Positions 16,488 through 63,090 of a DNA stretch of 64,000 nucleotides are shown one piece after another. The position numbers were made by a program, and so were the translations under genes. The stretch's first letter is position 1. Each line of letters starts with the position of its first letter. Origin of the DNA: Eledone cirrhosa (lineage: Eukaryota); NCBI GenBank assembly GCA_964016885.1, contig OZ024743.1:214706001-214770000 (forward strand), read 5' to 3'. Under the pieces are notes generated by a model. The model was given only the letters and a program-made list of their open reading frames with translations. It made no database searches and was not told the DNA's origin.

Positions 16488-16490
<3 letters not shown>
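16295..16490. mobile_element. Mini hairpin element (AACGAAGG...GTTCCT family) in (TA)n
   Basis: Arms 16363-16426 / 16429-16492; homologues at 27680 and 46316; contains the hammerhead 3' half GAAACGGC..GCCGTC. Confidence 0.85.
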
Positions 16491-26908: not shown

Positions 26909-26948
26909 CGCTGTACTAGTTCAAGCTTATTAGCTATCATCAGCAACG
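26909..26948 (-). ncRNA. Minimal type I hammerhead (one A missing from GAAA)
   Basis: CGTTG-CTGATGA-T-AGCT-aata-AGCT-T-GAAC-ta-GTA-CAGCG. Confidence 0.65.
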
Positions 26949-27373: not shown

Positions 27374-27414
27374 CGTTGCTGACGATAGCTAATAAGATTG
27401 AAACTGGTACAGCG
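27374..27414 (+). ncRNA. Minimal type I hammerhead
   Basis: CGTTG-CTGACGA-TAGCT-aata-AGATT-GAAAC-tg-GTA-CAGCG. Confidence 0.7.
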
Positions 27415-27616
27415 TTCCTTTGTCAGTGTTGAACAAACGAGCACCGATGGTTGCTAGACAGTACTGCTTAATACGGGATGTTTGTTTACAAACACACCGG
27501 GCATTATAATAAATGTTCGGTGAATCGATCCGTAAATATATATACGTGTGCATGTATGCATATATATATACATACTACTTTACATCTGTATACATATTTG
27601 TATGTACGTATACATA

Positions 27617-27679
<63 letters not shown>

Positions 27680-27681
<2 letters not shown>

Positions 27682-27871
27682 CGAAGGCAATGTGGTAGGG
27701 AACCAGATGGACCATAAAGTACCAAAGTACTCAATACTTATAGTAGTAGTGTGGGTAATAGAAAGAAGTATGACCCCGACGGCAGGGCTCAAGCCGATAC
27801 GACGGCTAATTATGGTCCAGAATTAGCCGTCGAAACGGCTTGAGCTCTGCCGTCGAGGTCATATTTGTTCC

Positions 27872-27872
<1 letters not shown>
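27680..27872. mobile_element. Mini hairpin element (AACGAAGG...GTTCCT family), copy 2
   Basis: Same termini as 16295-16490; shorter centre and more diverged arms. Confidence 0.85.
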
Positions 27873-32168: not shown

Positions 32169-32261
<93 letters not shown>

Positions 32262-32838
32262 CGGCGATGAATTAGTTTTGCGAGGTTTTTTATATGAAAT
32301 CGTGTGTCGAAACAGATATTGTTATATTTGGGGAGGGTCATATTTGCGTAATATTGCCAGAATTAATAACAGAACACACTCACTGTTTGGTTGGTTTTCG
32401 CTTCTCGCTGTCTTTTATATATATATATCTGCGATCTAACTTACTCGGTCCTCAATGTTGCCATTGACTGACCGGCGGTCAAAAATAATACAGATACAAT
32501 ATAGACAAACACATATATATATAGTTTACATAAATCTTTCGTTGCACATCTGCAACATCGTCAGTGGTGTTATATTCATTGTTCCTCCTGTTGTGTTGTA
32601 TGTCTACGCCATTTTTTTTGTTCAGTCTGTCTATATATTTATTTATTTATTTGCTTGTTTGTTTGTTTATCTTATTTTATTTTGTCTTCTTTGCGCATGC
32701 GTTTGCGTGTGTGTATAGTGTTATGTGTGATGTGTGACTAGTGTGTATAGTGTTGTCTGCTGGGTGACTAGTGTGTGTTTATGTGCTTGTGTATGTATTT
32801 ATTTATCTTATTTTATTTAATTTAATTTACTTATTTAT

Positions 32839-35800
32839 TTATACTTCTCTTAGGTCAGTGTTGTTTGTTTGGGTGTTGTTGTTGTTCCACTCATTCTTTC
32901 TGTTTAGCTTTGGTCTTCTAATTTCTATTTCACTGGCCTCTCTGATTTGCCTATCTGCTGGGTCATTCCTATGTTTAGATATTATTCTAATTTCTATGTT
33001 GTCTATGTTACCGTCATGATGTTGTCTAGCATGTTCGTATAGTACTGACCCGTTTTTTCGTCCTTTTAGTTCCCCCCAGTGTTGGTCTATCCTTTCACCT
33101 ATGCTACGAGCTGTCTCACCTATGTATGTTGTTGTCGTGTTTCTGCAAGTACCCTCTGTACATCTTATGCTATAGACTACGTTTCTAGTTTTACAGTTTA
33201 TCCGGGGGTTCACCTTACATATGATACATTTCCTATTGGTACAGTGGGTTTTCTTAAAAGGGTAGGTTTTGCTGATCAGGGATTTTATGGTGGTTCCTGG
33301 CTTTTCTACCACCTTTATTTTTAAGTGGGTCTTTCTCAGGGCCTTTCTACACTGGTTAGCTAATTTCCCTCCAGGGGTGGCGTCCACAAACATGACACTC
33401 TGATATCTCTGGTTGTCGTACCATGATGTGGCCTTCCCTATCTTATGTCTAGCCCTATCTAAGCTATTCCATGATTTGCTCCTGTATAGTGGTCAAATTC
33501 CTTTCATGTCCAGTTCTATGAGGGTCTTATACTTTTCCATGGCTCCTTCGTATACTCTGACTCTGTCTCTTTGGTTGTAGCCAGAGAACTGCATGCGGTT
33601 GATGAAGTGTTGGATGTGTCCTTCCATTTCTGTTGGGTCGCACATGCTGGACACATTCTTCATCACTCGTACCAAATCTGCGATCAGAATATTAAACTTA
33701 GCACTACTGGACATTGCTGAGTTTTTGAGTATCAGGTATTTGGAGGCCATGGGTTTAGCATAGTGTGAGTGGAGAATTTGGGCTCTCTCGTCTATAGTGT
33801 TAATCCAGAGTTCTGTGTCTAATACAGGTAGTCTATTGTTAGGGTGTTTGGAAGGGAAGTCTATAGTTACAGTTATACTCTGGTGTATGGAATTAGCTAT
33901 CTGCTGGATGCTTTCCATCGTGCTACGTTCTAAATCAAACTTGTTAGTGCTCTCTAGTGGGGGTGTTCTTATAACTATATTGATATCGTCTACATAACGA
34001 GAGTACATGATGAGGTCTATGGAGCTTTCATTAAGGAGATCTTTAAGTCTCCTTTCCCACCATACCATGAAAAGGTTGGCAACATCGCCAGCTATGCTGA
34101 CGCCGATGGCTGCTCCCTCATTTTGGGTGTAGATTTTCTCATTGAACTTAAATATGTGGCCCTTTAGGGTAGTTTTGATACTAGCCCCTATTGCATGTGC
34201 GACCATTTTTCTTACCTGATCAGTGTTTTGGGGGGTCCGTATAGCTTTGGTCCACCCAATCCACCTTCCTATGGGAGTCTTTTTAGCCATTGAGGTTATG
34301 GTGGGGGGTCTACCTCTTATAGGTCTACTAGGGCAGAAACATCTAAGGTCATGGCTGTCTAGGTAGTCAGTGTCGTAGGTAAGTCTAAGTAGGAGGCCCA
34401 GTTCGTCTGTGTCGACGTCGCAGAACTCCACCTCACTCTCAATGATCATCTCCACACATCTTTTCACAGCAAAATCAATGTTAATGGATGGGTACAGTGA
34501 CACCACATCCATGCTGCCTATTATGCAGTTGGATAGGCTCCTGTTTTTGTTGCACTCACTGATTCTGCTGAGGAGGTCCTCTGTACTTTCACATACATCT
34601 GGGGACATCTTGATTATGGGGCGTATAACCATTGAGAGGAAGTAGGAGATCCTGTAGTTGCTAGCTATATTAGCTCCGCATACAGGTCTTGTTGGTGGTC
34701 CTATTGTCGGGTCGTCGACTGTCTTGTGGTCTTTGCGGAGCCCATACAAGGGTGGTATGCCATTGTTAGACGCCTGGAAGTTGTTGGCAGTGCGTCTGCT
34801 TGGCTTTAGGATGTCAGTCCACATCATCATGTGAGCGTTGAGGATTTTTTCCTCTCCCATCGTGTGTTAGTTGTGCAACTTCGCTCGTGTTGGTGATGTG
34901 GGGTTGCATTGCCTCGATGTAGTTCGGCATGCTATCTATTGACATCCTACCAGACTTATCTGTGGGTAGACACACTACCTCACCATCCCTTGTGCGCTGC
35001 TTGAGGCTAACCAAGCCTTCTACAGGTTTTATCCCAAGTTGTTGGGCCTCTGGTCTGCTCTGTCTCATAGTGTACCTGTCTACTACTTGTCTAATCTTAT
35101 TTCTAGCTATGGTGAACTGTGCCTCCGTCTCGTCATCTATTTGTTGTGGTATGCAAACTCTTTTATTAAAGGGTAACCTCGTAGGATAGATATTACCCAT
35201 CTTATATGTTTTGTCAGCTGGGTTGAAAAATAGTTTCTCTAAGGGGTTGTCGTTATTTCTATCGTCATAGTTGTGTGTGTTGCTATTATTGTTATCATGG
35301 TGGTTGTTGTTGTTTCTATCCTTAGCATTAATATTATTATTGTTATGATTGCTAGGTGTATTGTTGTTTACTTCACCGTTATTGTTGTTGTTACTGCTAT
35401 TTCTACCATTGTGGTTGTTACTATTATTATGTTTCTTGTTTTTGTTGATGTTGCTACATGTACTATTTCCATTATTACCACTGTGGTTATTGTTGTTGTT
35501 GTTGTTCGTATTGTTACCGTTATTACTACTGTGGTCACTGTTGCTGTGTCTGTGGTTAACGTTTCTATTATTATTATTATTGTGGTTGTTGTTGTTCTGT
35601 CTATCGCTAGTATTATTACCATTATCACTATTTCTCACTTTCCTGCCATTGTTATGGTTATGGCTGTTATTTCTATACCCAGAGTTATTGTTTATATTAC
35701 TACTACCGTTATTATTGTTGTTGTTGTTTACCTTTGCATTCCAACGTATTTTTGTGAAACACTTTTCCAGCTCCGTTTTGCATTCCATAGGATTAATCTT

Positions 35801-36469
35801 TTTGTAGATGGCAAATTTTGGTGGTAACTTTAGGATTTGTTGTTCTTGTTCACTGATTAAAGTGTTCCCATAGATATTTACTGTGTGGTCATTGGTAAAT
35901 TCTTCCGGTAGTTTTACATCACTCATACGGATGTTGTCGATGTTATCTGGGTATTTTTGAGAATATTCGATTTTCCTTTCTTGTAGTTTTTTCTTATTCA
36001 TCCATTCTAATTTCTTCTTGAAATGCCTACAGCATTCGTTTTGAGCATATTTCGTTTCGCGTCGGATGACGCTCATGAAGTCATCTCTCTCGTTTGCTGT
36101 GATGAGATTTCGGATTTCCTTACCGTTGATGCGTTTTTGTCTGTAGAGTGCGTTGACTTTTGTGTATGTTGTTCTTTTCATATTAACTGTTATTGTGTGT
36201 TTTAGCCGTTCAGCTTGTGTTTTGTTCAATAATAAATTATTTACTTGTTTTGATATGTTTGTTGTGTATGTTTTGGAGGAAACACAGTGTTTTAAGAAGC
36301 GGATTTGTTCTGTTGTTATTGTAGTTTTTATATAACAGAAAACAGTGTCTTTCAATAACCTTTCAGCTTGGCACAAGCTAATGCCATAGCGGCGATGAAT
36401 TAGTTTTGCGAGGTTTTTTATATGAAATCGTGTGTCGAAACAGATATTGTTATATTTGGGGAGGGTCAT
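32839..36469 (-). pseudogene. Family B polyprotein (N-terminus, Asn-rich insert, RT, GIY-YIG); one +1 frameshift (about 34852) and one in-frame TGA (33493-33495)
   Basis: ORFs of 551, 455 and 184 aa; GSMDVVSLYPS, YSRYVDD, NVVY..YIGETARS..ER..QH. Confidence 0.9.
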
Positions 36470-37804
36470 ATTTGCGTAATATTGCCAGAATTAATAACAG
36501 AACACACTCACTGTTTGGTTGGTTTTCGCTTCTCGCTGTCTTTTATATATATATATCTGCGATCTAACTTACTCGGTCCTCAATGTTGCCATTGACTGAC
36601 CGGCGGTCAAAAATAATACAGATACAATATAGACAAACACATATATATATAGTTTACATAAATCTTTCGTTGCACATCTGCAACATCGTCAGTGGTGTTA
36701 TATTCATTGTTCCTCCTGTTGTGTTGTATGTCTACGCCATTTTTTTTGTTCAGTCTGTCTATATATTTATTTATTTATTTGCTTGTTTGTTTATCTTATT
36801 TTATTTTGTCTTCTTTGCGCATGCGTTTGCGTGTGTGTATAGTGTTATGTGTGATGTGTGACTAGTGTGTATAGTGTTGTCTGCTGGGTGACTAGTGTGT
36901 GTTTATGTGCTTGTGTATGTATTTATTTATCTTATTTTATTTAATTTAATTTACTTATTTATTTATACTTCTCTTAGGTCAGTGTTGTTTGTTTGGGTGT
37001 TGTTGTTGTTCCACTCATTCTTTCTGTTTAGCTTTGGTCTTCTAATTTCTATTTCACTGGCCTCTCTGATTTGCCTATCTGCTGGGTCATTCCTATGTTT
37101 AGATATTATTCTAATTTCTATGTTGTCTATGTTACCGTCATGATGTTGTCTAGCATGTTCGTATAGTACTGACCCGTTTTTTCGTCCTTTTAGTTCCCCC
37201 CAGTGTTGGTCTATCCTTTCACCTATGCTACGAGCTGTCTCACCTATGTATGTTGTTGTCGTGTTTCTGCAAGTACCCTCTGTACATCTTATGCTATAGA
37301 CTACGTTTCTAGTTTTACAGTTTATCCGGGGGTTCACCTTACATATGCTAGACAACATCATGACGGTAACATAGACAACATAGAAATTAGAATAATATCT
37401 AAACATAGGAATGACCCAGCAGATAGGCAAATCAGAGAGGCCAGTGAAATAGAAATTAGAAGACCAAAGCTAAACAGAAAGAATGAGTGGAACAACAACA
37501 ACACCCAAACAAACAACACTGTCCTAAGAGAAGTATAAATAAATAAGTAAATTAAATTAAATAAAATAAGATAAATAAATACATACACAAGCACATAAAC
37601 ACACACTAGTCACCCAGCAGACAACACTATACACACTAGTCACACATCACACATAACACTATACACACACGCAAACGCATGCGCAAAGAAGACAAAATAA
37701 AATAAGATAAACAAACAAGCAAATAAATAAATAAATATATAGACAGACTGAACAAAAAAAATGGCGTAGACATACAACACAACAGGAGGAACAATGAATA
37801 TAAC

Positions 37805-37845
37805 ACCACTGACGATGTTGCAGATGTGCAACGAAAGATTTATGT
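37805..37845 (+). ncRNA. Hammerhead-like motif of family B pLTR (also 32528-32568 and 36656-36696, minus)
   Basis: CTGACGA-T-GTTGCA-gatg-TGCAAC-GAAAG; stems I and III are weak. Confidence 0.55.
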
Positions 37846-38049
37846 AAACTATATATATATGTGTTTGTCTATATTGTATCTGTATTATTTTTGACCGCCG
37901 GTCAGTCAATGGCAACATTGAGGACCGAGTAAGTTAGATCGCAGATATATATATATAAAAGACAGCGAGAAGCGAAAACCAACCAAACAGTGAGTGTGTT
38001 CTGTTATTAATTCTGGCAATATTACGCAAATATGACCCTCCCCAAATAT

Positions 38050-38056
<7 letters not shown>

Positions 38057-38089
<33 letters not shown>

Positions 38090-38403
38090 TATATATAATA
38101 TATATATATATAATATATATAATATATATAATATATATATATATATAATATATATAATATATATGTATATATAATATATATATATGTATAATATATATAA
38201 TATATATATATATATAAAAAAAAAATATATATATATATAATATATATAATATATATATATATAATATATATATATAAATATATAATATATATAATATATA
38301 TAATATATATATATATATATAATATATATAATATATATATATATATATAATATATATAATATATATATATAATATATATATATATATAATTTATATATAT
38401 AAT

Positions 38404-38435
<32 letters not shown>

Positions 38436-38569
38436 ATATATAATATATATATATATATATATATAATATATATATATATATAATATATATATATATAATA
38501 TATATATATATAATATATATATATATTATATATATATATATAATATATATATATATAATATAAATATAT

Positions 38570-38608
<39 letters not shown>
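38057..38608. repeat. Degenerate (TA)n tract
   Basis: Direct observation. Confidence 0.95.
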
Positions 38609-39065
38609 CGATATTAGATAAATGGAAACTATATTTATAAAACCATATTTATTTCATTATATATATTTCAGGGATATCATATTAACAATATGTTATGCCT
38701 TCCTCAGACAAAATATAATATAGACAGTTTTATAGATAAATAGATTTGACATACCGTTCAACATCGACTTGTATTTGAGAAAGTTGATTTGGCAGAAATC
38801 AACTTTCTCAAATACAAGTCGATGTTGAACGGTATGTCAAATCTATTTATCTATAAAACTGTCTATATTATATTTTGTCTGAGGAAGGCATAACATATTG
38901 TTAATATGATAACCCTGAAATATATATAATGAAATAAATATGGTTTTATAAATATAGTTTCCATTTATCTAATATCATAAATATACTCCAAATACTTGTT
39001 GAGTGCTTTTATATCAGTTATAAATATTTACTAGTTGTAACCCAACAATTTAAATATAACTTTCC
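38609..39065. mobile_element. Family C pLTR-only fold-back (arms 38609-38790 / 38796-38976, plus a tail to 39065)
   Basis: Matches the family C 3' end; carries a hammerhead in each arm (plus copy at 38871-38936). Confidence 0.88.
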
Positions 39066-39092
39066 ATATATATATATATATATATATAATAT

Positions 39093-39124
<32 letters not shown>

Positions 39125-39153
39125 CATATATATATAATGTATATATATAATAT

Positions 39154-39196
<43 letters not shown>

Positions 39197-39317
39197 TATA
39201 TATATAATATATATATATAATATATATATATATAATATATATATATAATATATATATATATAATATATATATATATAATATATATATATATAATATATAT
39301 ATATAATATATATATAT

Positions 39318-42300
39318 GGAAAGTTATATTTAAATCGTTGCGTTACAACTAGTAAATATTTATAACTGATATAAAAGCACTCAACAAGTATTTGGAGTAT
39401 ATTTACGATATTAAATAAATGGAAACTATATTTATAAAACCATATTTATTTCATTATATATATTTCAGGGATATCATATTAACAATATGTTATGCCTTCT
39501 TCAGACAAAATACAATATAGACAGTTTTATAGATAAATAGATTTGACATACCGTTCAACATCGACTTGTATTTGAAAAAGTTGATTTGGCAGTGAAAAGT
39601 TGTAAAAAGAAAGAAAGAAAGAAAGAAGGAAATAAAGAAAGAAAACGAAGGAAAGAAAGAAAGAAAACGAAGAAAAAGAAGAAAAAGAAGAAATGCATGC
39701 AACAAAATAGAGAGATGGAAAGATAGAAAGATAGATAAAGAGAAGAACTTCATGTAAAGAAACAGAGAGAGATATATAGAGAGAGGAAATAGATAGAGAT
39801 AGATATATATAGAGAAAGTAGGTAGTTGAACAACGTATCAATGACACATTTATTTATTTATTTATTTATTTAGCTCTAGTATTAATGTAAGGGAGATATA
39901 TGTGGTTAGGAAAGAAACCAGCCGTTATATATAGAGAAAAATGAAAAGTAACCAGACATAGGCGAGGCAGAATTTAAAAACCCTATGTTTTAATGTAGAA
40001 ATATTAGTTCGTATAAAAACCAGGCACTATAATGTAAATATCAGTATTCCTGAATGAGACACGTATCTATAATGTGTGAAAAGTAATGATCTTATGTCTA
40101 GTTTTAAAAATTCATATGTTTATATGATAACTACAAACATCGATGTGAATTTACGTGATCATCTCTGCAAACCCCTATTTCACACGGAGAACATTCTCAT
40201 TGTGCTATAAAAATTTAAGTATACATATATGTGTATATATACACATATATATAGAGTCTATATTAATTTTAACAATACTATGCTTGTCTTTACTCTACAT
40301 GATTATCTATCAAGCAGAAATAGAGAACAGATTTCAATATATTAATAAAAATAAAAATATCAGAAACAAAAACAAAAAATAATAATAATAATAATAATAA
40401 TAAACAAATAAATAAAATAGAAAACTAAAAAATATTACATATTAAAAATGAAAATATTAAAAATATTAAAAAATATTAAAATAAGAAAAATAAAAACATA
40501 ATATGCCACGCAAATCGACCACAAAGATCAACCCTTCAAAATTAATTGACAATATAGTGCCAAGTTCCTTATAAGCATCAGAGTCGAAAACAGATAAAGC
40601 TAAAAATTATTTACCAAATCGCGTCTAGCAGAAATCATTTCAAAAGTTTAGGATGCCCATTTGGTCTACATATGTTCTTATATTTTATATAGAAGATTAT
40701 CTAGTGTAACGTTTATTCGATATATTTGGAGCATCAACTTTTAGGGTAGTTTAATTTTTCATGAAGAATGTTTAAAATAAAAATAAAAATAAAAATAAAA
40801 AGAAGAATAAAAAGAAGAAATCGAAAGATTTATCGGCTAGTTTCCCAAATAATTACAAATCAAACTAAATATACTACATTTTAAATTTAAATTTATATTT
40901 AAAAGTTGAGTTCAATCTATGTTTGCAGCCACTGAATAAATTTGTCCGTAGATTAAGGGAATGTTTAGATTTTAGTATAAAGAATATCTCCTCCGCGCAG
41001 AGGTCACATGTCTCAGAAGGATGAATTAAAAGGAATCCCTCTTGAGACTATATTCCAAGCCGTCGAATATCTAACGTTATCTTGCCTAAGTTGCCAGAGT
41101 ACGCCTGATAGTGCTGTTGAAGATTTTTAGCTTGGATCTGTGAAAGAATTCTTGTGGTTATTATAGCGAAGTTTAAATTCCGTCGATGTGGAACCGACGT
41201 AGTTAAAAGAATTAGAGTCCGTTTTAACATTACAGTTGTATATTATATTTTTAACTAAGCAGTTGTTATTTAACGGACATTTAGATCTATCTCTACAGTT
41301 ACACTTGTTAACTTGTATATTATTTATGCTATTATCGCTAGGTTTTAAGTTCCTATTATTTATTCTATTAATATTTTGTGCTAAATTTTTGGTGGATGAG
41401 TAGGTTAATTTTATAGTATGTCTATTGAAAATTGAGTGATACCTATGTGTTCTAGGGAAGCGACTATCAAGAGCTTTAAAAAATAGTTTAGCGATGTGGG
41501 TTTTAATGTTTAGTGAGAAAGGGGGGGGGGGGAAACCATATTATGTTCCTAGTTCTATTTCTTTTTTGGCTTTTGGAATTATTGTAATGCTTTCTATTAT
41601 AGTTGTTAAGGTTGTGGCCGTAATTAAAATAGTTGTTATTTTGTTTAGTTTGTCTATTATTATCTATGTAGATAATCTTATCACTATATCCTGCTCTAGC
41701 TAACGCTTCATTGTAGTACTGGGCTTTTTCGTCGAAAATCTTTCTATTAGACGAGATTCTAGAGATACGTTTTTGAACAGAGTTTACTATAGTGTTTTTG
41801 ACAGATCTGGGGTGGTTAGAGTTAAAGCTGACATAGTTTAAGTTTTCATTCAACTTGTGAAATGGATAGTGAAGACATGTGTTGAGATTTAATGTTATAT
41901 CTAGGAAATTGACTATTCTATGGTTGTTCTCAATTTCTATTTTTAGATTAAAGTAATTAAAAAATTGTGTAATTTGTTTTCTTTTTCTATTTAGTTCAGA
42001 GTTATTATTATCAATAAGTAAAAGCATGTCATCTCTATATAAACCTCCGGTAGTCACAGGTATTTTCCTATGTAGCGAATTGATTAAAAATAAGCCCACA
42101 AGGTCAGTTACCTGAGCTGAGTCGGATGATCCCATAGTAATGTCACTAGAACACATAGGTATCACTCAATTTTCAATAGACATACTATAAAATTAACCTA
42201 CTCATCCACCAAAAATTTAGCATAAAATATTAATAGAATAAATAATAGGAACTTAAAAACTAGCGATAATAGCCTAAATAATATACAAGTTAACAAGTGT

Positions 42301-44258
42301 AACTGTAGAGATAGATCTAAATGTCCGTTAAATAAAAACTGCTTAGTTAAAAATATAATATACAACTGTAATGTTAAAACGGACTCTAATTCTTTTAACT
42401 ACGTCGGTTCCACATCGACGGAATTTAAACTTCGCTATAATAACCACAAGAATTCTTTCACAGATCCAAGCAAAAAATCTTCAACAGCACTATCAGGCGT
42501 ACTCTGGCAACTTAGGCAAGATAACGTTAGATAATCGACGGCTTGGAATATAGTCTCAAGAGGGATTCCTTTTAATTCATCCTCTGAGACATGTGACCTC
42601 TGCGCGGAGGAGATATTCTTTATACTAAAATCTAAAAATTCCCTTAATCTACGGACAAATTTATTCAGTGGCTGCAAACATAGATTGAACTCAACTTTTA
42701 AATATAAATTTAAATTTAAAATGTAGTATATTTAGTTTGATTTGTAATTATTTGGGAAACTAGCCGATAAATCTTTCGATTTCTTCTTTTTATTCTTCTT
42801 TTTATTTTTATTTTTATTTTTATTTTAAACATTCTTCATGAAAAATTAAACTACCCTAAAAGTTGATGCTCCAAATATATCGAATAAACGTTACACTAGA
42901 TAAACTTCTATATTAAATATAAGAACATATGTAGACCAAATGGGCATCCTAAACTTTTGAAATGATTTCTGCTAGACGCGATTTGGTAAATAATTTTTAG
43001 CTTTATCTGTTTTCGACTCTGATGCTTATAATGAACTTGGCAATATATTCTCAATTAATTTTGAAGGGTTGATCTTTGTGGTCTATTTTTATTATTGTAG
43101 TATTTTCTAATATTTTTATTTTTAATATGTAATATTTTTTCGTAATATTTTTTAGTTTTCTATTTTATTATTATTTATTATTATTAATATTTTTATTTTT
43201 TGTTTTTGTTTCTGATATTTTTTATTAATATATTGAAATCTGTTCTCTATTTCTGCTTGATAGATAATCATGTAGAGTAAATACAAGAATAGTATTGTTA
43301 AAATTAATATAGACTCTCTATATATATGTGTATATATATACACATATACGTATACTTAAATTTTTATAGCACAATGAGAATCTTCTCCGTGCGAAATTGG
43401 TGTTTGCAGAGTTGATCACGTAAATTCACATCGATGTTTGTAGTCATCATATAAACATATGAATTTTTAAAACTAAACATAAGATCATTACTTTTCACAC
43501 ATTATGGATACGTGTCTCATTCAGGAATACTGTTATTTACATTATAGTGCCTGGTTTTTATACATACTAATACTTCTACATTAAAACATAGGGTTTTTAT
43601 GCCTCGCCTATGTCTGGCTACTTTTCATTTTTCTCTATATATAACAGCTGGTTTCTCTCCTAACCACATATATCTCCCTTACATTAATACTAGAGCTAAA
43701 TAAATAAATAAATAAATAAATGTATCATTGATACATTTATTCAACGGATGTCCAACTACCTACTTTTCTCTATATATATCTATCTCTATCTATTTCCTCT
43801 CTCTATATATATCTCTCTCTGTTTCTTTACATGAAGTTCTTCTCTTTATCTATCTTTCCATCTCTCTATTTTGTTACATGCATTTCTTCTTTTTCTTCTT
43901 TTTCTTCGTTTTCTTTCTTTCTTTTCTTTCTTTCCTTCTTTCTCTCTTTCTTTCTTTCTGTTTACAATTTTTTCACTGCCAAATCAACTTTTCAAATACA
44001 AGTCGATGTTGAACGGTATGTCAAATCTATTTATCTATTTATCTATAAAACTGTCTATATTGTATTTTGTCTGTGGAAGGCATAGCATATTGTTAATATG
44101 ATATCCCTGAAATATATATAATGAAATAGATATGGTTTTATAAATATAGTTTCCATTTATTTAATATCGTAAATATACTCCAAATACTTGTTGAGTGCTT
44201 TTATATCAGTTATACATATTTACTAGTTGTAACCCAACAATTTAAATATAACCTTCCA
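39318..44258. mobile_element. Family C inverted pair: minus copy 39318-42145 truncated in RT; plus copy 42146-44258 truncated in the linker
   Basis: DITMGSSDSAQ..LYRDD (ORF 41503-42165); EN coding on both strands; both ends are the long 3' end. Confidence 0.9.
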
Positions 44259-44276
44259 TGTATATATATATTTATA

Positions 44277-44325
<49 letters not shown>

Positions 44326-44328
44326 ATT

Positions 44329-44359
<31 letters not shown>

Positions 44360-44387
44360 ATATTTATATGTATATATATATATATAC

Positions 44388-45684
44388 AGGTTAATGTAAA
44401 TTAATATATTTGATAAACACAAACACCAACATATTCATATTTGTATTGTAAATTACCAAGTTAGCTAGATTGAAATATACTAATAATAATATTACAGTTT
44501 TCCTATCTTGGCTTAAGATAATAAATCAACAAAAACAAATTGTATTGGCAAGTCTTTTACAATGAAATAGCTCAAAGAAAGAGTATCTCTGAGCTATTCT
44601 TTCGTTGAGCTGAATTTAGCCCCATACAAACGGCTGTTATTTCTAGCAGCACGAGTATGTGACTAGCTAGACACTGGATAACCGCGTGAAATTACCTCGT
44701 GCGCTAAACAGTCTTTCTAAATATTTTGAAGTGGAACATACACATTTTTATAGTGCTTGCTGAGGAGATCAAAATGCGGTATTTCTTCCACCTTTTCATT
44801 ATTCGAAACATATTTGGATTTTAAGCTTTAAACCTGTCTACGGAACAGGTTTGATTTTGAAATTTAAATTTGTCCAAGCACAACGGTCATTGCCAATACA
44901 ATTTGTTTTTGTTGATTTATTATCTTAAGTCAAGATAGGCAAACTGTAATATTATTATTAGTATATTTCAATCTAGCTAACTTGGTCATTTACAATACAA
45001 TCATGAATATGTTGGTGTTTGTGTTTATCAAATATATTAACTTATATTAACCTGTATTACACGGCTAAGAAATACTCTTTCTTTGAGCTATTTCATTGTA
45101 AAAGACTGCCTGAGATTTGAACTCATTATTATTGATTTATCACTGCTCCTTCGTTGAGCTGAATTTAGCCCCATACAAACGGCTGTTATTTCTAGCAGCA
45201 CGAGTATGTGACTAGCTAGACACTGGATAACCGCGTGACATTACCTCGTGCGCTAAACAGTCTTTCTAAATATTTTGAAGTAGAACATACCAATTTTTAT
45301 AGTGCTTGCTGGTGGAGATCAACATGCGGTATTTCTTCCACTTTTTCATTATTCGAAACATATTGGGATTTTAAGCTTTAAACCTGTCTACGGAACAGTT
45401 TTGATTTTGAAATATAAATTTGTCCAAGCACAACGGCCATTGCCACTACAATTTGTTTTTGCTGATTTATTATCTTAAGTCTAGATAGGCAAACTGTAAT
45501 ATTATTATTAGTATATTTCAATCTAGCTAACTTGGTCATTTACAATACAAACATGAATATGTTGGTGTTTGTGTTTATCAAATATATTAATTCATATAAA
45601 CCTGTATTACACGGCTCAGAAATACTCTTTCTTTGAGCTATTTCATTGTAAAAGACTGCCTGAGATTTGAACTCATTATTATTG

Positions 45685-46316: not shown

Positions 46317-46412
46317 ACGAAGGAAATGTGGTAAGGAACCAGGTGGACCATAACGCACCAAAGTACTCAATACTTGAGGTAGTAGAGTGGGTAATAGGAA
46401 CTCTTACTGGTT

Positions 46413-46481
<69 letters not shown>

Positions 46482-50439: not shown

Positions 50440-52881
50440 TTAATTAGGTTTATAATATTTAAATGTTTTTTTTAGTTTATGATTACACGATATAATTAAT
50501 TCCTGTCGTTTATTTAATAGGATATCCTTAGATTTCATTATTTCAAATAGTTCTTGGGAACATAATCTACATTCATTTCTATTATTTTGATAAGGGGTGG
50601 CTCTTTTGAGCACACTCCAGGTCAAATCATATTTTATATTCTTATTTTTATAACTATTGATTTTTTCTGCTAGAGATGTTGTATTAGCCAGTGCGGCATT
50701 TTTAAAACTATGCTTGTGGGTATTAAACCTTGTCTTAAAATTGTTAGAAGTAGCTCCTATATATGAGCAAATAGAATCTTTAGTTTTAACATTACATTTA
50801 TAGACTATGTTGTTAACAAGACAATTCCCTTTTAATGGGCAGTTTGCTTTGTTTCTACAGTTACAACCTTTCGTTAATTCTGTATTTGAGGAGATATTAT
50901 GGTTAATTTGATGTATTGGTGGTATATTTATGGTTTTCTTACATTTATATGCATTATAGGCACTTATATTTTGTTTTATGTTATTTGTTGTTGAGTATGA
51001 GAATTTAACTGTAGACCTATTTAAGATTTGATGGTATTTGTGGTTTGGCGGGAAGTTTTTCTCTAGGATATAAAAAAATTTTTTAGCAATATTATCCTTA
51101 ATTTGTAAATTAAATGGAGCATTATACCAAGTAACCCGTCTATTACGGTTTCTATGTTGTTTATTATTTTTATTATTTTTATAGGTTGTATCGTGATGTT
51201 TACTAGGAGGATTAATGTTAATGATCTCACCACAACCATTTTTAGTTATATTTGTAGATTTAGGTGTTTTATCTTTTTTATTAGGAGTTTTATTATTAAT
51301 ATTTATTAGAGTTGTATGATGAGTAGTTTTTTGAGAGTTACTATATTTTATATTAGAAGATTTGGTATTTTGGGGTATAGTGTGGGTGGCATTTAGGTGT
51401 GTACTTTTCATTTGGTGTTTGTTGGTAATATTAGGTTGTATGCTTTTAGTATTTTTAGTAGAAGGTATATATTCTAATCTATTTTTGTGGCCACTTCTAT
51501 CTAGAGCTTCGTTATAGAAGGTCGCATTTTTATCAAATACATCTTGGTTAGAAGAAAGGTTAGAAATTCTAAGTGATATATTATATGCAAGGTTTTTAAG
51601 GATAGATTTAGGGTGATTAGATTGTGAGTGTATGTAATGTAAGTTTTGGTTTGGTTTATGGTAAGGTTGGTAGATACCCGTAGCTAAATCTAAAGTTATA
51701 TCTAGGAAATTTACTACTTTACTTATTTTTTCAAAAGTAATATGAAGATTATAATAGTCTTTAAGGAAAGTTCTAATATGTTTTTTGTTTTTTTCTATTT
51801 CTGAAAGGCTAAGGTTGTTAGAAAGAAGAAGACAGTCATCACGATATAAACCACCTTTAAGGTGGGGAAAGGAGGCATTTATGTTGAAAAGGAGAAAGAG
51901 GCCCACAAGATCAGTAATTTGGGCGGAATCGCTTGAACCCATAGTAATATCAAATAGATTACTATATGTGTTTCTGGTCCAGTATTCATTCTGAAATTCA
52001 ATAAGTGTTAGTCTAGCATGTGTAATAATATTAATGTCATCCAAAGTTAAGTTAGATCTATTTTTAGCAAATATCAATGCTTTGTTCAGGAGTATAGGTG
52101 ATATAGAAGAATAGTAATTATCTATATCAAATTGTAGAAATGAAGCAGAAGATTTACAACTAATATTTTTAAACCAGTTAATTACCTGGGAGGTGTTTTC
52201 CCAGAGTGGTAAAATAACGTGTTTTCTTATTTGTGGGATGACTCTATCCAAAATTTTTTTGCTAATTATTCCAATATCTGATTTGGAGGGACATATAAGT
52301 CTTATAGAAGGATTTGAGTTAAAGTTTGATTTATGATCCTTCAGGTTGAAGTGTGGTCTTTTCAATGCCAAAGGTTCAGTTCTATCTTCAATGTTTAGTT
52401 TTTTTACTATGTTGTGTGTTTTGTTGTTGATGTTGGTGAGTGACGCATTATTAGATTTTTTATAATTTTTTCTGAGTTCTTTATATATGAACTCATTATA
52501 ATGTTCAATATCCATGTGATACAATTTACCAGTTTTGTCAGAGTGGACATGGATTTTTTTAGACTTTTTTAGGTCCAATAGGGTAGAATCAAGGTCCTTT
52601 TGAAAGACGGATTTATACTTTTTAAATTTGAGGTGTTTAATTAAATTAAAAAGGTCTTTCTCGAAGTCTTCAAGTAAAAAGTTGTGTGGTGGATTCTTGT
52701 AAGTATTGAAATCATACATATATTTCCGATCTGCTTGTTTAGATTTTGTATCGAAGTGGTAGGCCCTCCATCTAACCCTTCTGATAAAATTATTAGTTTT
52801 TTGAATCATAAGGAGTAAGAAGTCATCCTTAGAAGGTATTGGTATGTTTTTTAAAGAGGTTCCCAAATATTGTTTTTCCAT
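50440..52881 (-). CDS. Intact Penelope-like RT-GIY-YIG protein (813 aa from the first ATG; possibly Nematis-like)
   Basis: Uninterrupted ORF: SLKNIPIPS, RRVRWRA, LKDHK, FDIDNYYSSI, DITMGSSDS, LYRDD, NFLD, CNC..CPL..CL, IVYKC..YIGAT, RFNTH, CRLC, CNH. Confidence 0.9.
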   Translation of the reverse strand: MEKQYLGTSLKNIPIPSKDDFLLLMIQKTNNFIRRVRWRAYHFDTKSKQADRKYMYDFNTYKNPPHNFLLEDFEKDLFNLIKHLKFKKYKSVFQKDLDSTLLDLKKSKKIHVHSDKTGKLYHMDIEHYNEFIYKELRKNYKKSNNASLTNINNKTHNIVKKLNIEDRTEPLALKRPHFNLKDHKSNFNSNPSIRLICPSKSDIGIISKKILDRVIPQIRKHVILPLWENTSQVINWFKNISCKSSASFLQFDIDNYYSSISPILLNKALIFAKNRSNLTLDDINIITHARLTLIEFQNEYWTRNTYSNLFDITMGSSDSAQITDLVGLFLLFNINASFPHLKGGLYRDDCLLLSNNLSLSEIEKNKKHIRTFLKDYYNLHITFEKISKVVNFLDITLDLATGIYQPYHKPNQNLHYIHSQSNHPKSILKNLAYNISLRISNLSSNQDVFDKNATFYNEALDRSGHKNRLEYIPSTKNTKSIQPNITNKHQMKSTHLNATHTIPQNTKSSNIKYSNSQKTTHHTTLININNKTPNKKDKTPKSTNITKNGCGEIININPPSKHHDTTYKNNKNNKQHRNRNRRVTWYNAPFNLQIKDNIAKKFFYILEKNFPPNHKYHQILNRSTVKFSYSTTNNIKQNISAYNAYKCKKTINIPPIHQINHNISSNTELTKGCNCRNKANCPLKGNCLVNNIVYKCNVKTKDSICSYIGATSNNFKTRFNTHKHSFKNAALANTTSLAEKINSYKNKNIKYDLTWSVLKRATPYQNNRNECRLCSQELFEIMKSKDILLNKRQELIISCNHKLKKTFKYYKPN

Positions 52882-53334
52882 TGTGATATGGATGATGGAC
52901 AATTAATATCCATGTGCTTATGATAATATTATATCCACATATATATGTGTGTGGGGGTGTATGTGAGTATGTATGTTCGTAATTATGTGTATGTTTATGC
53001 ATATACGCGCGCGTGTGTGTGAGTGTACGGATATGTGTGAGTATGAGAATATGTGTATACACTTATTTCATATTTATGTGTCTATACGCATTTTATCTGT
53101 GGATTATAAACTTACAGAGACATTAGCCTTGAATTTTTGTATTTGCATACATCTTTTTGGCATGCGTATGCATGTTAAGCATATATCTTTGTATAAATAT
53201 ATGTACGGGGTTAGTTACATGTATATACACACACCAAACTGCATAAAACTTTTTGTATTTTCATTGGTCAATTTTGAACTCCGTTCCCAAACGGACCTGA
53301 AATTTTGAATTGTTGTTATTATCAATAAATATAT

Positions 53335-55741: not shown

Positions 55742-56260
55742 ACATATATACATGTATATATTGTACCTTTTGATTTTTGATTTGGAATTTCAGTGTTGGT
55801 ATTGATATATTATTATTATAATGTATTATACTGGGTTATATATAATTCCTGCTCTATATAACCAAATTTGTTTAGATTTAAGTTGGTGACTTTGGACTAT
55901 ATTTGTAATATGGTTCTTAATGTTATCTACATCCTTAGTTATTATAATTTTATTATTTTTATCTTCATTTTTATTATAGTATATCTTTGTAAGACATTAG
56001 TGTATGTAAACTCCATATTCTTCAGAGTTTCTGGCTTGTATCTGCCGAAATTACCTCTTGTTGTTTTGATTGCCCTGATGAGTCCTTAATAGGACGAAAC
56101 ATTGTCGGCTAATAAACACTTTTGATGTTTTAAAGGATTCTTTGTTTTACTCTCTTAATTTTTCGGCTCTGTTTAACTGCATTGAGCTATACCTTTTATT
56201 GTCATTTCTATAATACGAAGAGGGTGTTTGAATCAAACACGCTCCAGTATTCTAATCCTT
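53965..56260 (+). mobile_element. 5'-truncated PLE family H: EN C-terminus plus about 2 kb 3' UTR, between TA tracts
   Basis: 53965-54177 translates to [37 protein letters not shown] (not in the ORF track); hammerhead near the end. Confidence 0.82.
56069..56113 (+). ncRNA. Canonical minimal type I hammerhead ribozyme
   Basis: ATTGCC-CTGATGA-GTCCT-taat-AGGAC-GAAAC-att-GTC-GGC(T)AAT. Confidence 0.9.
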
Positions 56261-56357: not shown

Positions 56358-56475
<118 letters not shown>

Positions 56476-56503
56476 TATATATTTATATATATTTATAAAT
56501 ATA

Positions 56504-56536
<33 letters not shown>

Positions 56537-56549
56537 TTATATATATTTA

Positions 56550-56640
<91 letters not shown>

Positions 56641-58272
56641 TATATATATATTTATAAATATATATATATTTATATATATTTATAAATATATATATATATA
56701 TATATATATGGAAAGTTATATTTAAATTGTTGGGTTACAACTAGTAAATATTTATAACTGATATAAAAGCACTCAACAAGTATTTGGAGTATATTTACGA
56801 TATTAAATAAATGGAAACTATATTTATAAAACCATATTTATTTCATTATATATATTTCAGGGATATCATATTAACAATATGTTATGCCTTCCTCAGACAA
56901 AATACAATATAGACAGTTTTATAGATAAATAGATTTGACATACCGTTCAACATCGACTTGTATTTGAGAAAGTTGATTTGGCAGAGAAAAATTGTAAACG
57001 GAAAGAAAGAAAGAGAGAAAGAAGGAAAGAAAGAAAGAAAATGAAGAAAAAGAAGAAAAAGAAGAAATGCATGTAACAAAATAGAGAGATGGAAAGATAG
57101 ATACAGAGAAGAACTTCATGTAAAGAAACAGAGAGAGATATATATAGAGAGAGAGGAAATAGTTAGAGATAGATATATATAGAGAAAAGTAGGTAGTTGG
57201 AACGTATCAATGATACATTTATTTATTTATTTATTTATTTATTTAGCTCTAGTATTAATGTAAGGGAGATATATGTGGTTAGGGAAGAAACCAGCCGTTA
57301 TATAGAGAGAAAAAAATGAAAAGTAACCAGACATATGCGAGGCATAATTTAATAAACCCTATGTTTTAAGGTAGAAGTATTAATACGTATAAAAACCAGG
57401 CGCTATAATGTAAATATCAGTATTCCTGAATGAGACACGTATCCATAATGTGTGAAAAGTAATGATCTTATGTTTAGTTTTAAAAATTCCTATGTTTATA
57501 TGATAACTACAAACATCGATGTGAATTTACGTGATCAATTCCGCAAATCCCTATTTCACACGGAGAACATTCTCATTGTGCTATAAAATTTAAGTATACA
57601 TATATGTGTATATATATACACATATATATAGAGTCTATATTAATTTTAACAATACTATTCTTGTCTTTACTCTACATGATTATCTATCAAGCAGAAAAAG
57701 AGAACAGATTTCAATATATTAATAAAAAAATATCAGAAACAAAAACAAAAAAATAATAATGATAATAATAATAATAATAAATAATAATAAAATAGAAAGC
57801 TAAAAAATAAAAAATAAAAAATATTACAAAAAAATATTACATATTAAAAATAAAAATATTAGAAAATATTACAATAATAAAAATAAACCACAAAGATCAA
57901 CCCTTCAAAATTAATTGACAATATATTGCCAAGTTCATTATAAGCATCAGAGTCGAAAACAGATAAAGCTAAAAATTATTTATCAAATCGCGTCTAGCAA
58001 AAATCATTTCAAAAAGTTTAGGATGCCCATTTGGTCTACATGTATTCTTATATTTAATATAGAAGTTTATCTAGTGTAACGTTTATTCGATATTTTTGGA
58101 GCATCAACTTTTAGGGTAGTTTAATTTTTCATGAAGAATGTTTAAATAAAAATAAAAATAAAAATAAAAATAAAAATAAAAATAAAAATAAAAATAAAAA
58201 GAAGAATAAAAAGAAGAAATCGAAAGATTTATCGGCTAGTTTCCCAAATAATTATAAAACAAACTAAATATA

Positions 58273-60482
58273 CTACATTTTAAATTTAAATTTATATTTA
58301 AATGTTGAGTTTAATCTATGTTTGCAGCAACTGAATAAATTTGTCCGTAGATTAAGGGAATTTTTAGATTTTAGTATAAAGAATATCTCCTCTGCGCAGA
58401 GGTCACATGTCTCAGAGGATGAATTAAAAGGAATCCCTCTTGAGACTATATTCCAAGCCGTCGAATATCTAACGTTATCTAGCTTAAGTTGCCAGAGTAC
58501 GCCTGATAGTGCTGTAGAAGATTTTTTGCTTGGATCTGTGAAAGAATTCTTGTGGTTATTATTTAAATTCCGTCGATGTGGAACCGACGTAGTTAAAAGA
58601 ATTAGAGTCAGTTTTAACATTACAATTGTATATTATATTTTTAACTAAGCAGTTGTTATTTAACGGACATTTAGATCTATCTCTACAGTTACATGTGTTA
58701 ACTTGTATATTATTTATGCTATTATCACTAGGTTTTAAGTTCCTATTATTTATTCTATTAATATTTTGTGCTAAATCTTTGGTGGATGAGTAGGTTAATT
58801 TTATAGTATGTCTATTGAACATTGAGTGATACCTATGTGTTCTAGGGAAGCGATTATCAAGAGCTTTGAAAAATAGTTTAGCGATGTGGGTTTTAATGTT
58901 TAGTGAGAAGGGGGGGGGGGGCAAACCAAATTATGTTCCTAGTTCTATTTCTTTTTTGGCTTTTGGAATTATTGTAATGCTTTCTATTATATTTGTTAAG
59001 GTTGTTCCCGTAATTAAAATAGTTGTTATTTTGTTTAGTTTGTCTATCATTATCTATGTACATAATCTTATCACTATATCCTGCTCTAGCTAACGCTTCA
59101 TCGTAGTACTGGGCTTTTTCGTCGAAAATCTTTCTATTAGACGAGATTCTAGAGATACGTTTTTGAACAGAGTTTACTATAGTGTTTTTGACAGATCTGG
59201 GGTGGTTAGAGTTAAAGCTGACATAGTTTAAGTTTTCATTCAACTTGTGAAATGGATAGTGAAGACATGTGTTGAGATTTAATGTTATATCTAGGAAATT
59301 GACTATTCTATGGTTGTTCTCAATTTCTATTTTAAGATTAAAGTAATTAAAAAATTGTGTAATTTGTTTTCTTTTTCTATTTAGTTCAGAGTTATTATTA
59401 TCAATATGTAAAAGCATGTCATCTCTATATAAACCTCCGGTAGTACCAGGTATTTTCCTATGTAGCGAATTGATTAAAAATAAGCCCACAAGGTCAGTTA
59501 CCTGAGCTGAGTCGGATGATCCCATAGTAATGTCAAAATTGCTATCTCTATCTGCTCTGGTCCATAGTTGGTCATTAAATTCTATCAATGTTTTCCTAGC
59601 CGATAATATAATGTGCATGTCATTGCTAGTTAGGTCTGTATGTTTGAATGCGTAATTTAGTGCCTTATTTAGTAGATTAGGGGTAATAGAAGAATAATAG
59701 TTAGCAATATCAAGTTGAATAAACTTATTATTACTGTTATATTTAATTTGCTTAAACCACTCAACAACCTCTCCAGTTCCCTTCCACAAGCTCAGGTTAG
59801 GTAAACAATCCAAGTTCTTAATTTGCTGTATCACCTTGTCAAGAATGTTTTTGCTTAATTTGCCCAGGCCCGATTTTGATGGTGCGATCAATCTAACTGG
59901 CAAATCATTTTCAAAATTCCTTTTGTGATCTTTCATATTGATCTTCGGTTTCCTGGGCACGAAAGGTTGTGTTCTGTTCTCAATTTCCAACTCGTGCATT
60001 ATACAAGATGCTTCGACATTCATTTTCTCAAGCTCGGCTTTATCTGCTACCTTGTACTTTTTCCTCAGTTCCTTCAGTATGAGGCCATTATACATGTCTT
60101 TCTGCACTCCATAGAGGTTGTTGGTCTTGTCAGATTTCACCAAGATCTTCTCAGTTTTCTCTAAGCTCTCAATATTATCCTTAATGCCTTTCAGATATGC
60201 CTGGCCTTTGAAGTTTCTCTTGAATTTGACCCCTTGTATGATAGAAATTATATCGTTTTCAAAGTCAGATAAAAGTTTGTTAGGGGGTGGATTTCTTTTA
60301 GATTTGAAAACTTTGTTTAAGTCCGAGACATTTTCATTTATATTAGATTTATCAAAGTGGAATGCTCGCCACCTGATTCTCCTTATAAAAGAGTCAGATT
60401 TATCTATTAATTGTTTCATAAAGTCTTTGTTTCTAGGTATATGTATGTCTTTTAAAGAGGAAGTAATCTTAAAGAATTCCAT
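58273..60482 (-). pseudogene. Family C RT-GIY-YIG; frameshift in a G-run (about 58910-58921) and an 8-nt deletion (about 58561)
   Basis: ORFs of 529, 121 and 115 aa. The copy at 42421 retains CTTCGCTA (FKLRYNNH). Confidence 0.9.
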
Positions 60483-61505
60483 GTTTTCAGTTATAATATA
60501 ATGCGCTCAACAGTATTGGAGCAAGATACATGGAAAGTTATATTTAAATTGTTGGGTTACAACTAGTAAATATTTATAACTGATATAAAAGCACTCAACA
60601 AGTATTTGGAGTATATTTACGATATTAAATAAATGGAAACTATATTTATAAAACCATATTTATTTCATTATATATATTTCAGGGATATCATATTAACAAT
60701 ATGTTATGCCTTCCTCAGACAAAATACAATATAGACAGTTTTATAGATAAATAGATTTGACATACCGTTCAACATCGACTTGTATTTGAGAAAGTTGATT
60801 TGGCAGTGAAAAATTGTAAACAGAAAGAAAGAAAGAGAGAAAGAAGGAAAGAAAGAAAGAAAATGAAGAAAAAGAAGAAAAAGAAGAAATGCATGTAACA
60901 AAATAGAGAGATGGAAAGATAGATAAAGAGAAGAACTTCATGTAAAGAAACAGAGAGAGATATATATAGAGAGAGAGGAAATAGATAGAGATAGATATAT
61001 ATAGAGAAAAGTAGGTAGTTGGAACGTATCAATGATACATTTATTTATTTATTTATTTATTTAGCTCTAGTATTAATGTAAGGGAGATATATGTGGTTAG
61101 GGAAGAAACCAGCCGTTATATAGAGACAAAAATGACCACATATATCTCCCTTACATTAATACTAGAGCTAAATAAATAAATAAATAAATAAATGTATCAT
61201 TGATACGTTCCAACTACCTACTTTTCTCTATATATATCTATCTCTATCTATTTCCTCTCTCTATATATATATCTCTCTCTGTTTCTTTACATGAAGTTCT
61301 TCTCTTTATCTATCTTTCCATCTCTCTATTTTGTTACATGCATTTCTTCTTTTTCTTCTTTTTCTTCATTTTCTTTCTTTCTTTCCTTCTTTCTCTCTTT
61401 CTTTCTTTCTGTTTACAATTTTTCACTGCCAAATCAACTTTCTCAAATACAAGTCGATGTTGAACGGTATGTCAAATCTATTTATCTATAAAACTGTCTA
61501 TATTG

Positions 61506-61571
61506 TATTTTGTCTGAGGAAGGCATAACATATTGTTAATATGATATCCCTGAAATATATATAATGAAATA
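61506..61571 (+). ncRNA. Type I hammerhead of family C pLTR (7 copies in the window)
   Basis: TATTTTGT-CTGAGGA-AGG..CATATT-gtt-AATATG..CCT-GAAATA-ta-TATA-ATGAAATA. Confidence 0.68.
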
Positions 61572-61662
61572 AATATGGTTTTATAAATATAGTTTCCATT
61601 TATTTAATATCGTATATATATATATATATATTTATATATTTATATATATAATTATATATATT

Positions 61663-61700
<38 letters not shown>

Positions 61701-61900
61701 TATATATATATATTTATATATATATATATTTATATATATATATTTATATATATATATTTATATATATATAAATATTTATATATATATATTTATATATATA
61801 TATTTATATATATATATTTATATATATATATTTATATATATATATATTTATATATATATATTTATATACATATATTTATATATATATATTTATATATACA

Positions 61901-61945
<45 letters not shown>

Positions 61946-61946
61946 T

Positions 61947-62362
61947 GGATTAAATGCTCTGAAATAGCGATATATATGTGAAGATAGACATAGAATATTC
62001 GAAAATATTCTGTATGTTTATAATAAACATTTTGAAGACCTAATCGCTATAGAATAGAATACGTCACGTATTACAATTAGATTCTCGATAAAAGCAAGGG
62101 AAGTAACCTACGCGTTTCATTCTCATTAGAAATCTTCAGGATTACATATCCAGTGCTTTTATCGAGAATGACACAGCTAGAGACTTATAGAATACTTAGC
62201 TGTGTACAGGAACTGGTTTGAAAGAGCGGTTGCCGGTCCGGCAGAAATTAGAAATTGGATTAAATGCTCTGAAATAGCGATATATATGTGATTAGCGATT
62301 AGGTCTTCAAAATGTTTATTATAAACATACAGAATATTTTCGAATATTCTATGTCTATCTTT
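61947..62362 (-). mobile_element. Retrozyme-like element: 310-bp unit with 35-bp terminal redundancy plus inverted arm 62293-62361, in (TA)n
   Basis: 61947-61981 equals 62257-62291; the arm is the reverse complement of 61981-62049. Confidence 0.82.
62103..62145 (-). ncRNA. Minimal type I hammerhead
   Basis: GTAATC-CTGAAGA-T-TTCT-aatg-AGAA-T-GAAAC-gc-GTA-GGTTAC. Confidence 0.8.
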
Positions 62363-62376
62363 TATATATATACATT

Positions 62377-62413
<37 letters not shown>

Positions 62414-62416
62414 TTA

Positions 62417-62521
<105 letters not shown>

Positions 62522-62567: not shown

Positions 62568-62684
62568 AGATAACAATTGTTTCTATAGTGTATGGGTTAC
62601 CTATACCTCGCTATTTGAATAATATAACAATATTATCATAAACTGAAGGTACACTGTAAGCAAACACACCATGTCGTCAGACCT
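62568..62684 (-). ncRNA. Type I hammerhead with long stem II (family F)
   Basis: AGGT-CTGACGA-C-ATGGTGTGT...ATACACTAT-A-GAAAC-aatt-GTT-ATCT. Confidence 0.68.
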
Positions 62685-63090
62685 TTGTATTGGAATGACA
62701 TGAAAATATTTTATACACTAGATAAAAGAGAAAGAAGAAGGTAGGAAGAGAAGGGGAAGAGGGAAGTGAGTAAGGTGGAGGGAGTCCTAGCATTTAAGAC
62801 TGTCAGACTAGTAGAGATTGTAAGGAGAGAATGTTTTGGCAGCAGTTAGCTTAATGAGGCGTGTTTGGTTTGGCGGGGGAGGTAAATTCTTCTAGTGGTG
62901 TTGTTCGGACAAAATTCAGTGAATGGGGTCAAAGTGGTACAAGTTACAGACAAGTTATTAGGGCTATTATAGTAGGTCATTTCTAAAGGGGTCCAGAAAA
63001 CAGTGTTTAGTACTATTATTATAGAAAGCCATATCTTGTGTATAAACATATAAAACAGAAATTTGCAAACGGTGGTGTAAAATGGTAACA

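Follow-up and report, generated by a model that had tools for sequence, protein, structure and literature searches.

What is the compact, structured 310-nt sequence that lies between two long TA runs close to the end of the 64,000-nt stretch of DNA analysed here (the window), and by what route did it come to lie there? The original prediction described a retrozyme-like unit and read it as a branched, viroid-like circular RNA integrated by the machinery of Penelope-like elements (PLEs). Our analysis indicates that positions 61945-62361 are probably a single inverted-ended insertion of a non-LTR retrozyme, likely made in a (TA)n target by way of a PLE enzyme. The word circular, where applied to the RNA of the 310-nt unit, would follow by analogy from the literature on this family.

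One full non-coding unit was delimited at 61945..62254 on the minus strand from a repeat spacing of 310 nt, the length that had been predicted, and its GC content was 34.5%. It is followed at 62255..62291 (minus) by an exact redundancy of 37 nt (61945-61981 = 62255-62291), corresponding to the last 37 nt of a preceding unit; a redundancy had been foreseen, at a length of 35 nt. As the redundancy is the end of a preceding unit, a head-to-tail junction is present in the genome. The original description of the features stood overall, but the sense strand is minus and a 69-nt inverted copy, described below, had been missed. Read as a circle, the unit contained a longest stop-free run of 59 codons and a longest ATG-started frame of 26 aa. 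The 64-kb window held one copy, and no long terminal repeat was seen at the locus. The evidence for Pol III boxes on the sense strand was not convincing: the A box was absent, and two B boxes had a mismatch each.

The unit was as highly structured as predicted. The linear fold reached -78.2 kcal/mol (z -5.4, with none of 100 shuffles as stable), and folding as a circle, which the original prediction had named as a check, gave a z of -5.0 with none of 60 shuffles as stable. Both polarities folded well (z -5.0 and -5.1). The hammerhead described next sits on an 89-nt arm (62081..62169, minus) closed, as proposed, by a perfect 16-bp stem (62081-62096 / 62154-62169), which was 100% complementary and had a mean pair probability of 0.95 in the circular fold. 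Two further hairpins had been proposed. A 9-bp hairpin at 62171..62205 (minus; 62171-62179 / 62197-62205) was recovered with a pair probability of 0.98 in the circular fold, but the GC-rich TGCCGG/CCGGCA hairpin at 62231..62243 (minus) falls short of the 6 bp proposed, since the gap between its arms is 1 nt and only 5 bp form. Two short hairpins at 61992..62030 (minus; 61992-62011, with 8 bp and a UUCG loop, and 62014-62030) had gone unmentioned and stand just 5' of the inner end point of the insertion.

A type I hammerhead was identified at 62103..62145 on the minus strand. Helix I is formed by 62145-62140 and 62108-62103 (6 bp), the core by CUGAAGA (62139-62133) and GAAA (62118-62115) with all core nucleotides present, helix II has 4 bp with a U on either side (U.U), and helix III is a single base pair with a palindromic loop (A-CGCG-U). 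The cleavage triplet is GUA, and the cut is predicted between 62109 and 62108. When the 310-nt unit was dinucleotide-shuffled 20000 times, 6 of the shuffles fitted the descriptor, and it gave 8 matches in the window as compared to a mean of 0.05 in 100 shuffles. Rfam returned nothing in 61940-62300 at E<=10, so the hammerhead call rests on the descriptor match and on reading of the sequence. On the plus polarity of the unit only one-mismatch cores were found, with no exact core and no descriptor match. The canonical type I form is given as a helix I of 6 bp, a helix II of 4 bp and a helix III of 1-2 bp with a palindromic loop, and these short proportions are reported for tandem-repeat ribozymes and a long helix II for PLE motifs (PMC4209133). 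The coding PLEs of the window have hammerhead helix II regions of 31, 35 and 90 nt. For the window copy the lowest-energy fold predicted is a slipped pairing in which the core is buried, and the catalytic fold lies 8.8 kcal/mol higher, in an energy model that ignores core and loop-loop contacts.

The U...U flank of helix II had been predicted to recur at two other motifs of the window, and it was present at all three sites, including those near 26909 (core 26943, minus) and 17999 (core 18004, degenerate). A U-U at the helix II base has already been described for an axolotl retrozyme (PMC7229834). Among the public contigs discussed below, an A-U pair replaces U.U in three contigs labelled as other organisms and in three contigs of run X1. 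The flank is real in the window copy, is not fixed in the family and is no family hallmark.

The insertion is made of two pieces pointing outward from a single base, 62292, that fits neither. A 347-nt piece extends from there to 61945, and in the opposite direction a second, 5'-truncated piece of 69 nt (62293..62361, plus), a perfect inverted copy of 61981-62049, extends to the equivalent of 61981. Each piece meets a TA run, the left target flank being a (TA)n-rich microsatellite at 61613..61944 and the right one another at 62363..62520. The two outer 3' ends differ by a 36-nt "tail" at 61945..61980 (minus). PLE insertions typically show a partial tandem, an inverted 5'-truncated piece, a tail of 30-40 nt at one end and a (TA)n target (PMC8557442), and in vitro, once both target strands have been nicked, the tail corresponds to the spacing of two internal sites at which the RT starts (PMC11167929). 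At the 310-nt insertion the inverted 5'-truncated piece, the 36-nt tail and the (TA)n target were all present. Three other insertions of the window with both ends located had a like anatomy, their ends being offset by about 55, 58 and 82 nt; for the insertion at 3278-5821 only the inverted end was located.

The original prediction had asked where the permutation points fall. The unit is circularly permuted relative to the ribozyme cut site, with genomic ends 128 and 164 nt away from it. As neither end is at the cut site and the head-to-tail junction is spanned by the long piece, the template was not a linear cut monomer, and we infer from the sequence that it would have been circular or multimeric. 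The direct piece has its 5' end (62291) at the same unit position as the outer end of the inverted piece (61981). In this one case it looks as if the first cDNA had stopped at the second priming site on a second pass, and the coincidence was absent in the element at 26642-27626.

That element belongs to a second retrozyme-like family, with a unit of about 427 nt unrelated to the 310-nt unit. Its hammerheads lie at 26943 (minus, with GAAC in place of GAAAC) and 27379 (plus). It consists of a direct piece and an inverted one, the latter longer and running across the head-to-tail junction, its ends lie in (TA)n about 55 nt apart, its arms have diverged to 86-93% identity, and it folds with a z of -7.9. 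Comparison of the 310-nt unit with 11 window stretches bearing PLE ends or ribozymes gave only TA-rich matches and the hammerhead core (best E 0.016), and the apparent sharing of 'CACATATAT' between the unit and window stretches was not significant.

The window as a whole is AT-rich eukaryotic DNA, dense in microsatellites and PLEs, with several PLE RT and GIY-YIG frames. Its PLE ORFs contain the RWR, DKT and CxCx5C motifs, which are described features of the Hydra clade, and that clade inserts in (TA)n (PMC8557442). Pfam recognised one of six PLE ORFs, weakly. The frame at 50440-52902 (minus), of Hydra type by its RWR/DKT/CxCx5C motifs, is open for 820 codons. The best homologue of the 820-aa protein showed 39% identity over 99% coverage, and the named homologues came from one cephalopod and one ctenophore at 37-42% identity, a level that leaves the host unplaced; taken with the range of the Hydra clade, they make an aquatic invertebrate no more than a guess. 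Judged from its sequence, this frame is a candidate for the helper enzyme. One Hydra-type PLE family is present at 38250-44420 and 56430-61620 in several nested copies, some direct and some inverted, with hammerheads having a 31-nt helix II region at 38707, 38879, 39504, 44071, 56896, 60718 and 61514. Two families of another PLE type, with a DKS motif, a Cx5CxxC linker and a long Asn-rich stretch, were found at 519-5821 and 32258-38057 (hammerhead cores at 3465, 5629, 32564, 36692 and 37809). The 3' region of the neighbouring Hydra-type PLE lies at 62570-62690 (minus) with a hammerhead core at 62680, whose 90-nt helix II is well paired (-23.8 kcal/mol) and whose helix III is palindromic. Standard descriptors would miss this hammerhead with its 90-nt helix II.

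The rest of the window was surveyed as well. Rfam gave a Hammerhead_1 match at 56069-56113 (plus; 31.7 bits against a gathering score of 34), a tRNA-model match at the gathering score inside a hairpin at 18850-18921, and otherwise mostly miRNA-model matches to microsatellites. Short related non-coding pieces with internal inverted repeats, located between (TA)n runs at 16280-16490, 27681-27872 and 46317-46415, are possibly a third non-autonomous element. Interrupted frames at 10039-12158 (plus) presumably resemble a DNA transposase, and a near-perfect palindrome of 534 nt lies at 12429-12962.

Copies of the unit were then sought in public sequencing runs, and the stretch was found in 20 of the 24 runs listed. 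In three of the 20, from one sample, 0.75 of 36 words of the unit matched, and in the other 17, with 17 other organism labels, 0.36-0.44 of the 36 words matched; the share of 0.00 in four sibling runs is no proof of anything. No RNA run carrying the unit was among the 24 listed, which has no bearing on expression. Contigs were compared in four runs: X1, one of the three best, and X4, X9 and X19, three of the 17 with other organism labels; only these four runs serve as evidence here. Run X1 contained 586 contigs on the unit, 259 at 99+% identity, 207 at 95-99%, 80 at 90-95% and 40 below, with contig depth not taken as copy number. Among those listed, its loose ends in TA runs were at 61970 (12 contigs), 62079 (1) and 62254 (1). 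Run X1 thus has variant copies in large number as well as further insertion points, as a genomic repeat would.

The joint from 62254 to 61945 was bridged in three of the four runs, with shorter sides of 144, 69 and 128 letters. X4 and X9 each contained one 340-nt contig made up of 310 nt plus a 30-nt overlap and no flank, consistent with a closed cycle as seen in a 31-letter word graph, and X19 contained one 280-nt contig across the joint, in which the 30 uncovered nt are without meaning. A closed contig fits a tandem DNA array equally well and so is no demonstration of circular RNA, and the closed cycles came from runs with other organism labels rather than from the run that matched the most words. 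The share of contigs running on into unlike sequence was 0 in all four runs, a value that is weak for X1 because the longest piece listed there was 84 nt and the list covers part of the loose ends only. Arrays of at least two full units were seen neither in the window nor in the four runs, again with 84 nt as the longest X1 piece listed. With the inverted piece, the 36-nt tail, the (TA)n target and the joint in three of four runs, the idea of a retrozyme-like unit integrated by PLE machinery was supported, on more grounds than the original prediction had.

The contigs of X4, X9 and X19, from three studies (2020, 2022 and 2024), share seven differences from the window copy, and all seven were also found in X1. 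In the hammerhead register three of them keep or add a pair (62107, 62132 and 62142; two in helix I and one at the helix II base), and four are unpaired (62124 and 62125 in loop II, 62135 at a free core position, and 61983). All seven were compatible with the hammerhead register and two of the seven break a pair in the slipped fold. This variation favours the hammerhead register as the one conserved and suggests that the window copy may be a weakened variant, although one haplotype with seven sites is a thin basis. If traces of a high-copy repeat had been carried over, a single haplotype with no flanks would be expected. As a matter of judgement and not of computation, we consider it quite likely that the other-organism contigs are trace carry-over or environmental DNA from a many-copy host; related species sharing the family are a lesser possibility, and true cross-species spread is very unlikely.

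These observations can be arranged into a mechanism. The retrozyme cycle is described as transcription of an array, dimeric cleavage by hammerheads with a 1-bp helix III, closure by a host ligase and a circular RNA product (PMC7229834). For the 310-nt unit, tandem copies elsewhere in the genome would be transcribed, hammerheads next to one another would pair via the palindromic helix III and release monomers of 310 nt, and host ligase would close the monomers to circles. Integration would fall to the RT/GIY-YIG protein of a PLE, the Hydra type with its (TA)n target being the most plausible; this protein would nick both strands of a TA run and prime at two internal sites 36 nt apart. One cDNA would extend for 347 nt, a full turn of the unit and a further 37 nt, the other would stop after 69 nt, and the two would be joined head to head. 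Within the retrozyme reading, the template was probably a circle rather than a linear multimer. The window copy has one hammerhead and would therefore release no monomer by itself; it is likely a dead-end daughter copy. Two published results count against this scheme: eight of nine predicted Xenopus retrozyme dimers remained uncut in vitro (2026 preprint, bioRxiv 10.64898/2026.07.22.740005), and ribozyme cleavage was dispensable for PLE insertion in vitro (PMC11167929; Frangieh et al. 2024).

The retrozyme class and its link to PLEs are already in print. The enzyme that moves animal retrozymes has so far been argued from co-occurrence and phylogeny in the sources consulted (PMC7229834, PMC7761336 and the 2026 preprint), and here two unrelated retrozyme-like families within 64 kb directly carry the PLE-specific insertion footprint. 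The added value is mechanistic and modest. The two end points also give testable RT start sites on a 310-nt template. Should the other-organism contigs be genuine and not carry-over, a ribozyme circle would have moved across species. Our literature search, which covered its sources in part, returned no paper dealing specifically with the marks of PLE insertion in retrozymes, and we make no claim that none exists.

Three other readings of the locus were weighed. The 310-nt unit could be a 5'-truncated pseudo-LTR from a coding PLE with its ORF beyond the window, the redundancy then being only a PLE tail duplicated by a template jump. In its favour, the insertion anatomy is identical to that of coding PLEs, and retrozymes and pseudo-LTRs are related (bioRxiv 10.64898/2026.07.22.740005). 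The search for an ORF link, which covered the window and the four runs, found no continuity with or homology to an RT-endonuclease ORF. A truncated pseudo-LTR fits poorly with an identical end-to-start joint in three independent runs, in two of them as closed branchless cycles, and with a zero share of contigs leaving the unit for unlike sequence in four of four runs (X1 being weak here). The hammerhead is moreover canonical and not of PLE type by the proportions in PMC4209133, the strong fold of the unit (z -5.4) compares with a z of -0.67 for the one coding-PLE pseudo-LTR (terminal repeat) of the window that was folded, and the adjacent PLE at 62520 has its own hammerhead unlike that of the unit. 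We regard this explanation as unlikely.

An endogenised, autonomously replicating viroid-like circular RNA passing between animal species would account for the viroid size, the branched fold, the folding of both polarities and the flank-free contigs with seven common differences in three other-organism runs. Against it, an exact hammerhead core exists in one polarity only, and X1, with its numerous variant copies ending in TA runs, has the pattern of a genomic repeat; on these two points the viroid-like part of the original prediction was not supported. One of the three other-organism runs is, at a guess, DNA; the single haplotype with no flanks would also result if traces of a high-copy repeat had been carried over; and no exact 20-nt piece of the unit was matched in the viral, metagenome and prokaryote collections. 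A scan for the degenerate hammerhead motif gave 83 viral loci and, from 3 of 64 metagenome parts, 114 loci. One of the 197 (L070) had both helices, and none was like the unit beyond the motif. Autonomous replication of this kind is highly improbable. The broader proposition that the 310-nt ribozyme circle is a mobile RNA crossing animal species, with the window copy as its PLE-made genomic fossil, is scarcely more plausible, though if true it would mean either a viroid-like agent of animals in minimal form or the recent horizontal spread of a retrozyme. Finally, an assembly artefact in a TA-rich region producing the inverted piece and the redundancy is barely credible, for although the arms are 100% identical with long TA runs on both sides and contig support is confined to the direct piece, the junction inside the direct piece was found independently in public contigs, a similar anatomy is seen at 26642-27626, where the arms have diverged (86-93%), and the anatomy is the published PLE pattern (PMC8557442).

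The non-LTR retrozyme reading is thus best placed by comparison with known systems. Hammerhead viroids carry ribozymes in both polarities (PMC8781251), which the 310-nt unit does not. It resembles Avsunviroidae and viroid-like RNAs in its size, branched fold, hammerhead and lack of coding, and differs in having a ribozyme in one polarity only, of type I, and in being a genomic repeat with retro-insertion marks. With the PLE insertions of the Hydra clade (Craig et al. 2021, PMC8557442) it shares the partial tandem, inverted piece, tail, (TA)n target and type I hammerhead, but it has no ORF, a closed 310-nt unit and a hammerhead with a short helix II, and to the PLE ends of the window it has no sequence match. 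The closest likeness is to the metazoan non-LTR retrozymes described from coral, mussel and axolotl (Cervera and de la Pena 2020, PMC7229834). These share with it a non-coding, low-GC unit of about 300 nt, a head-to-tail junction, a branched self-paired fold and co-occurrence with PLEs; axolotl HHR_Amex1 likewise has a type I hammerhead with a 1-bp helix III and palindromic tetraloop, and HHR_Amex2 a U-U at the helix II base (PMC7229834). The size and GC given for the class (150-450 nt, GC under 45-50%) include the 310 nt and 34.5% found here, and the unit also has the type I hammerhead, the absence of coding, the head-to-tail junction, the stable fold and the autonomous PLEs nearby. No relative was found in the viral, metagenome and prokaryote collections searched, and by its sequence the unit would represent a new family within a class known since 2020. 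The 2026 preprint (bioRxiv 10.64898/2026.07.22.740005) derives retrozymes from PLEs and defines an "active" locus by two consecutive hammerhead units; the window locus, with one hammerhead, is a "monomer" in its scheme. Compared to the retrozymes described in these sources (PMC7229834, 2026 preprint), the window locus is a monomer with an inverted second piece and a tail.
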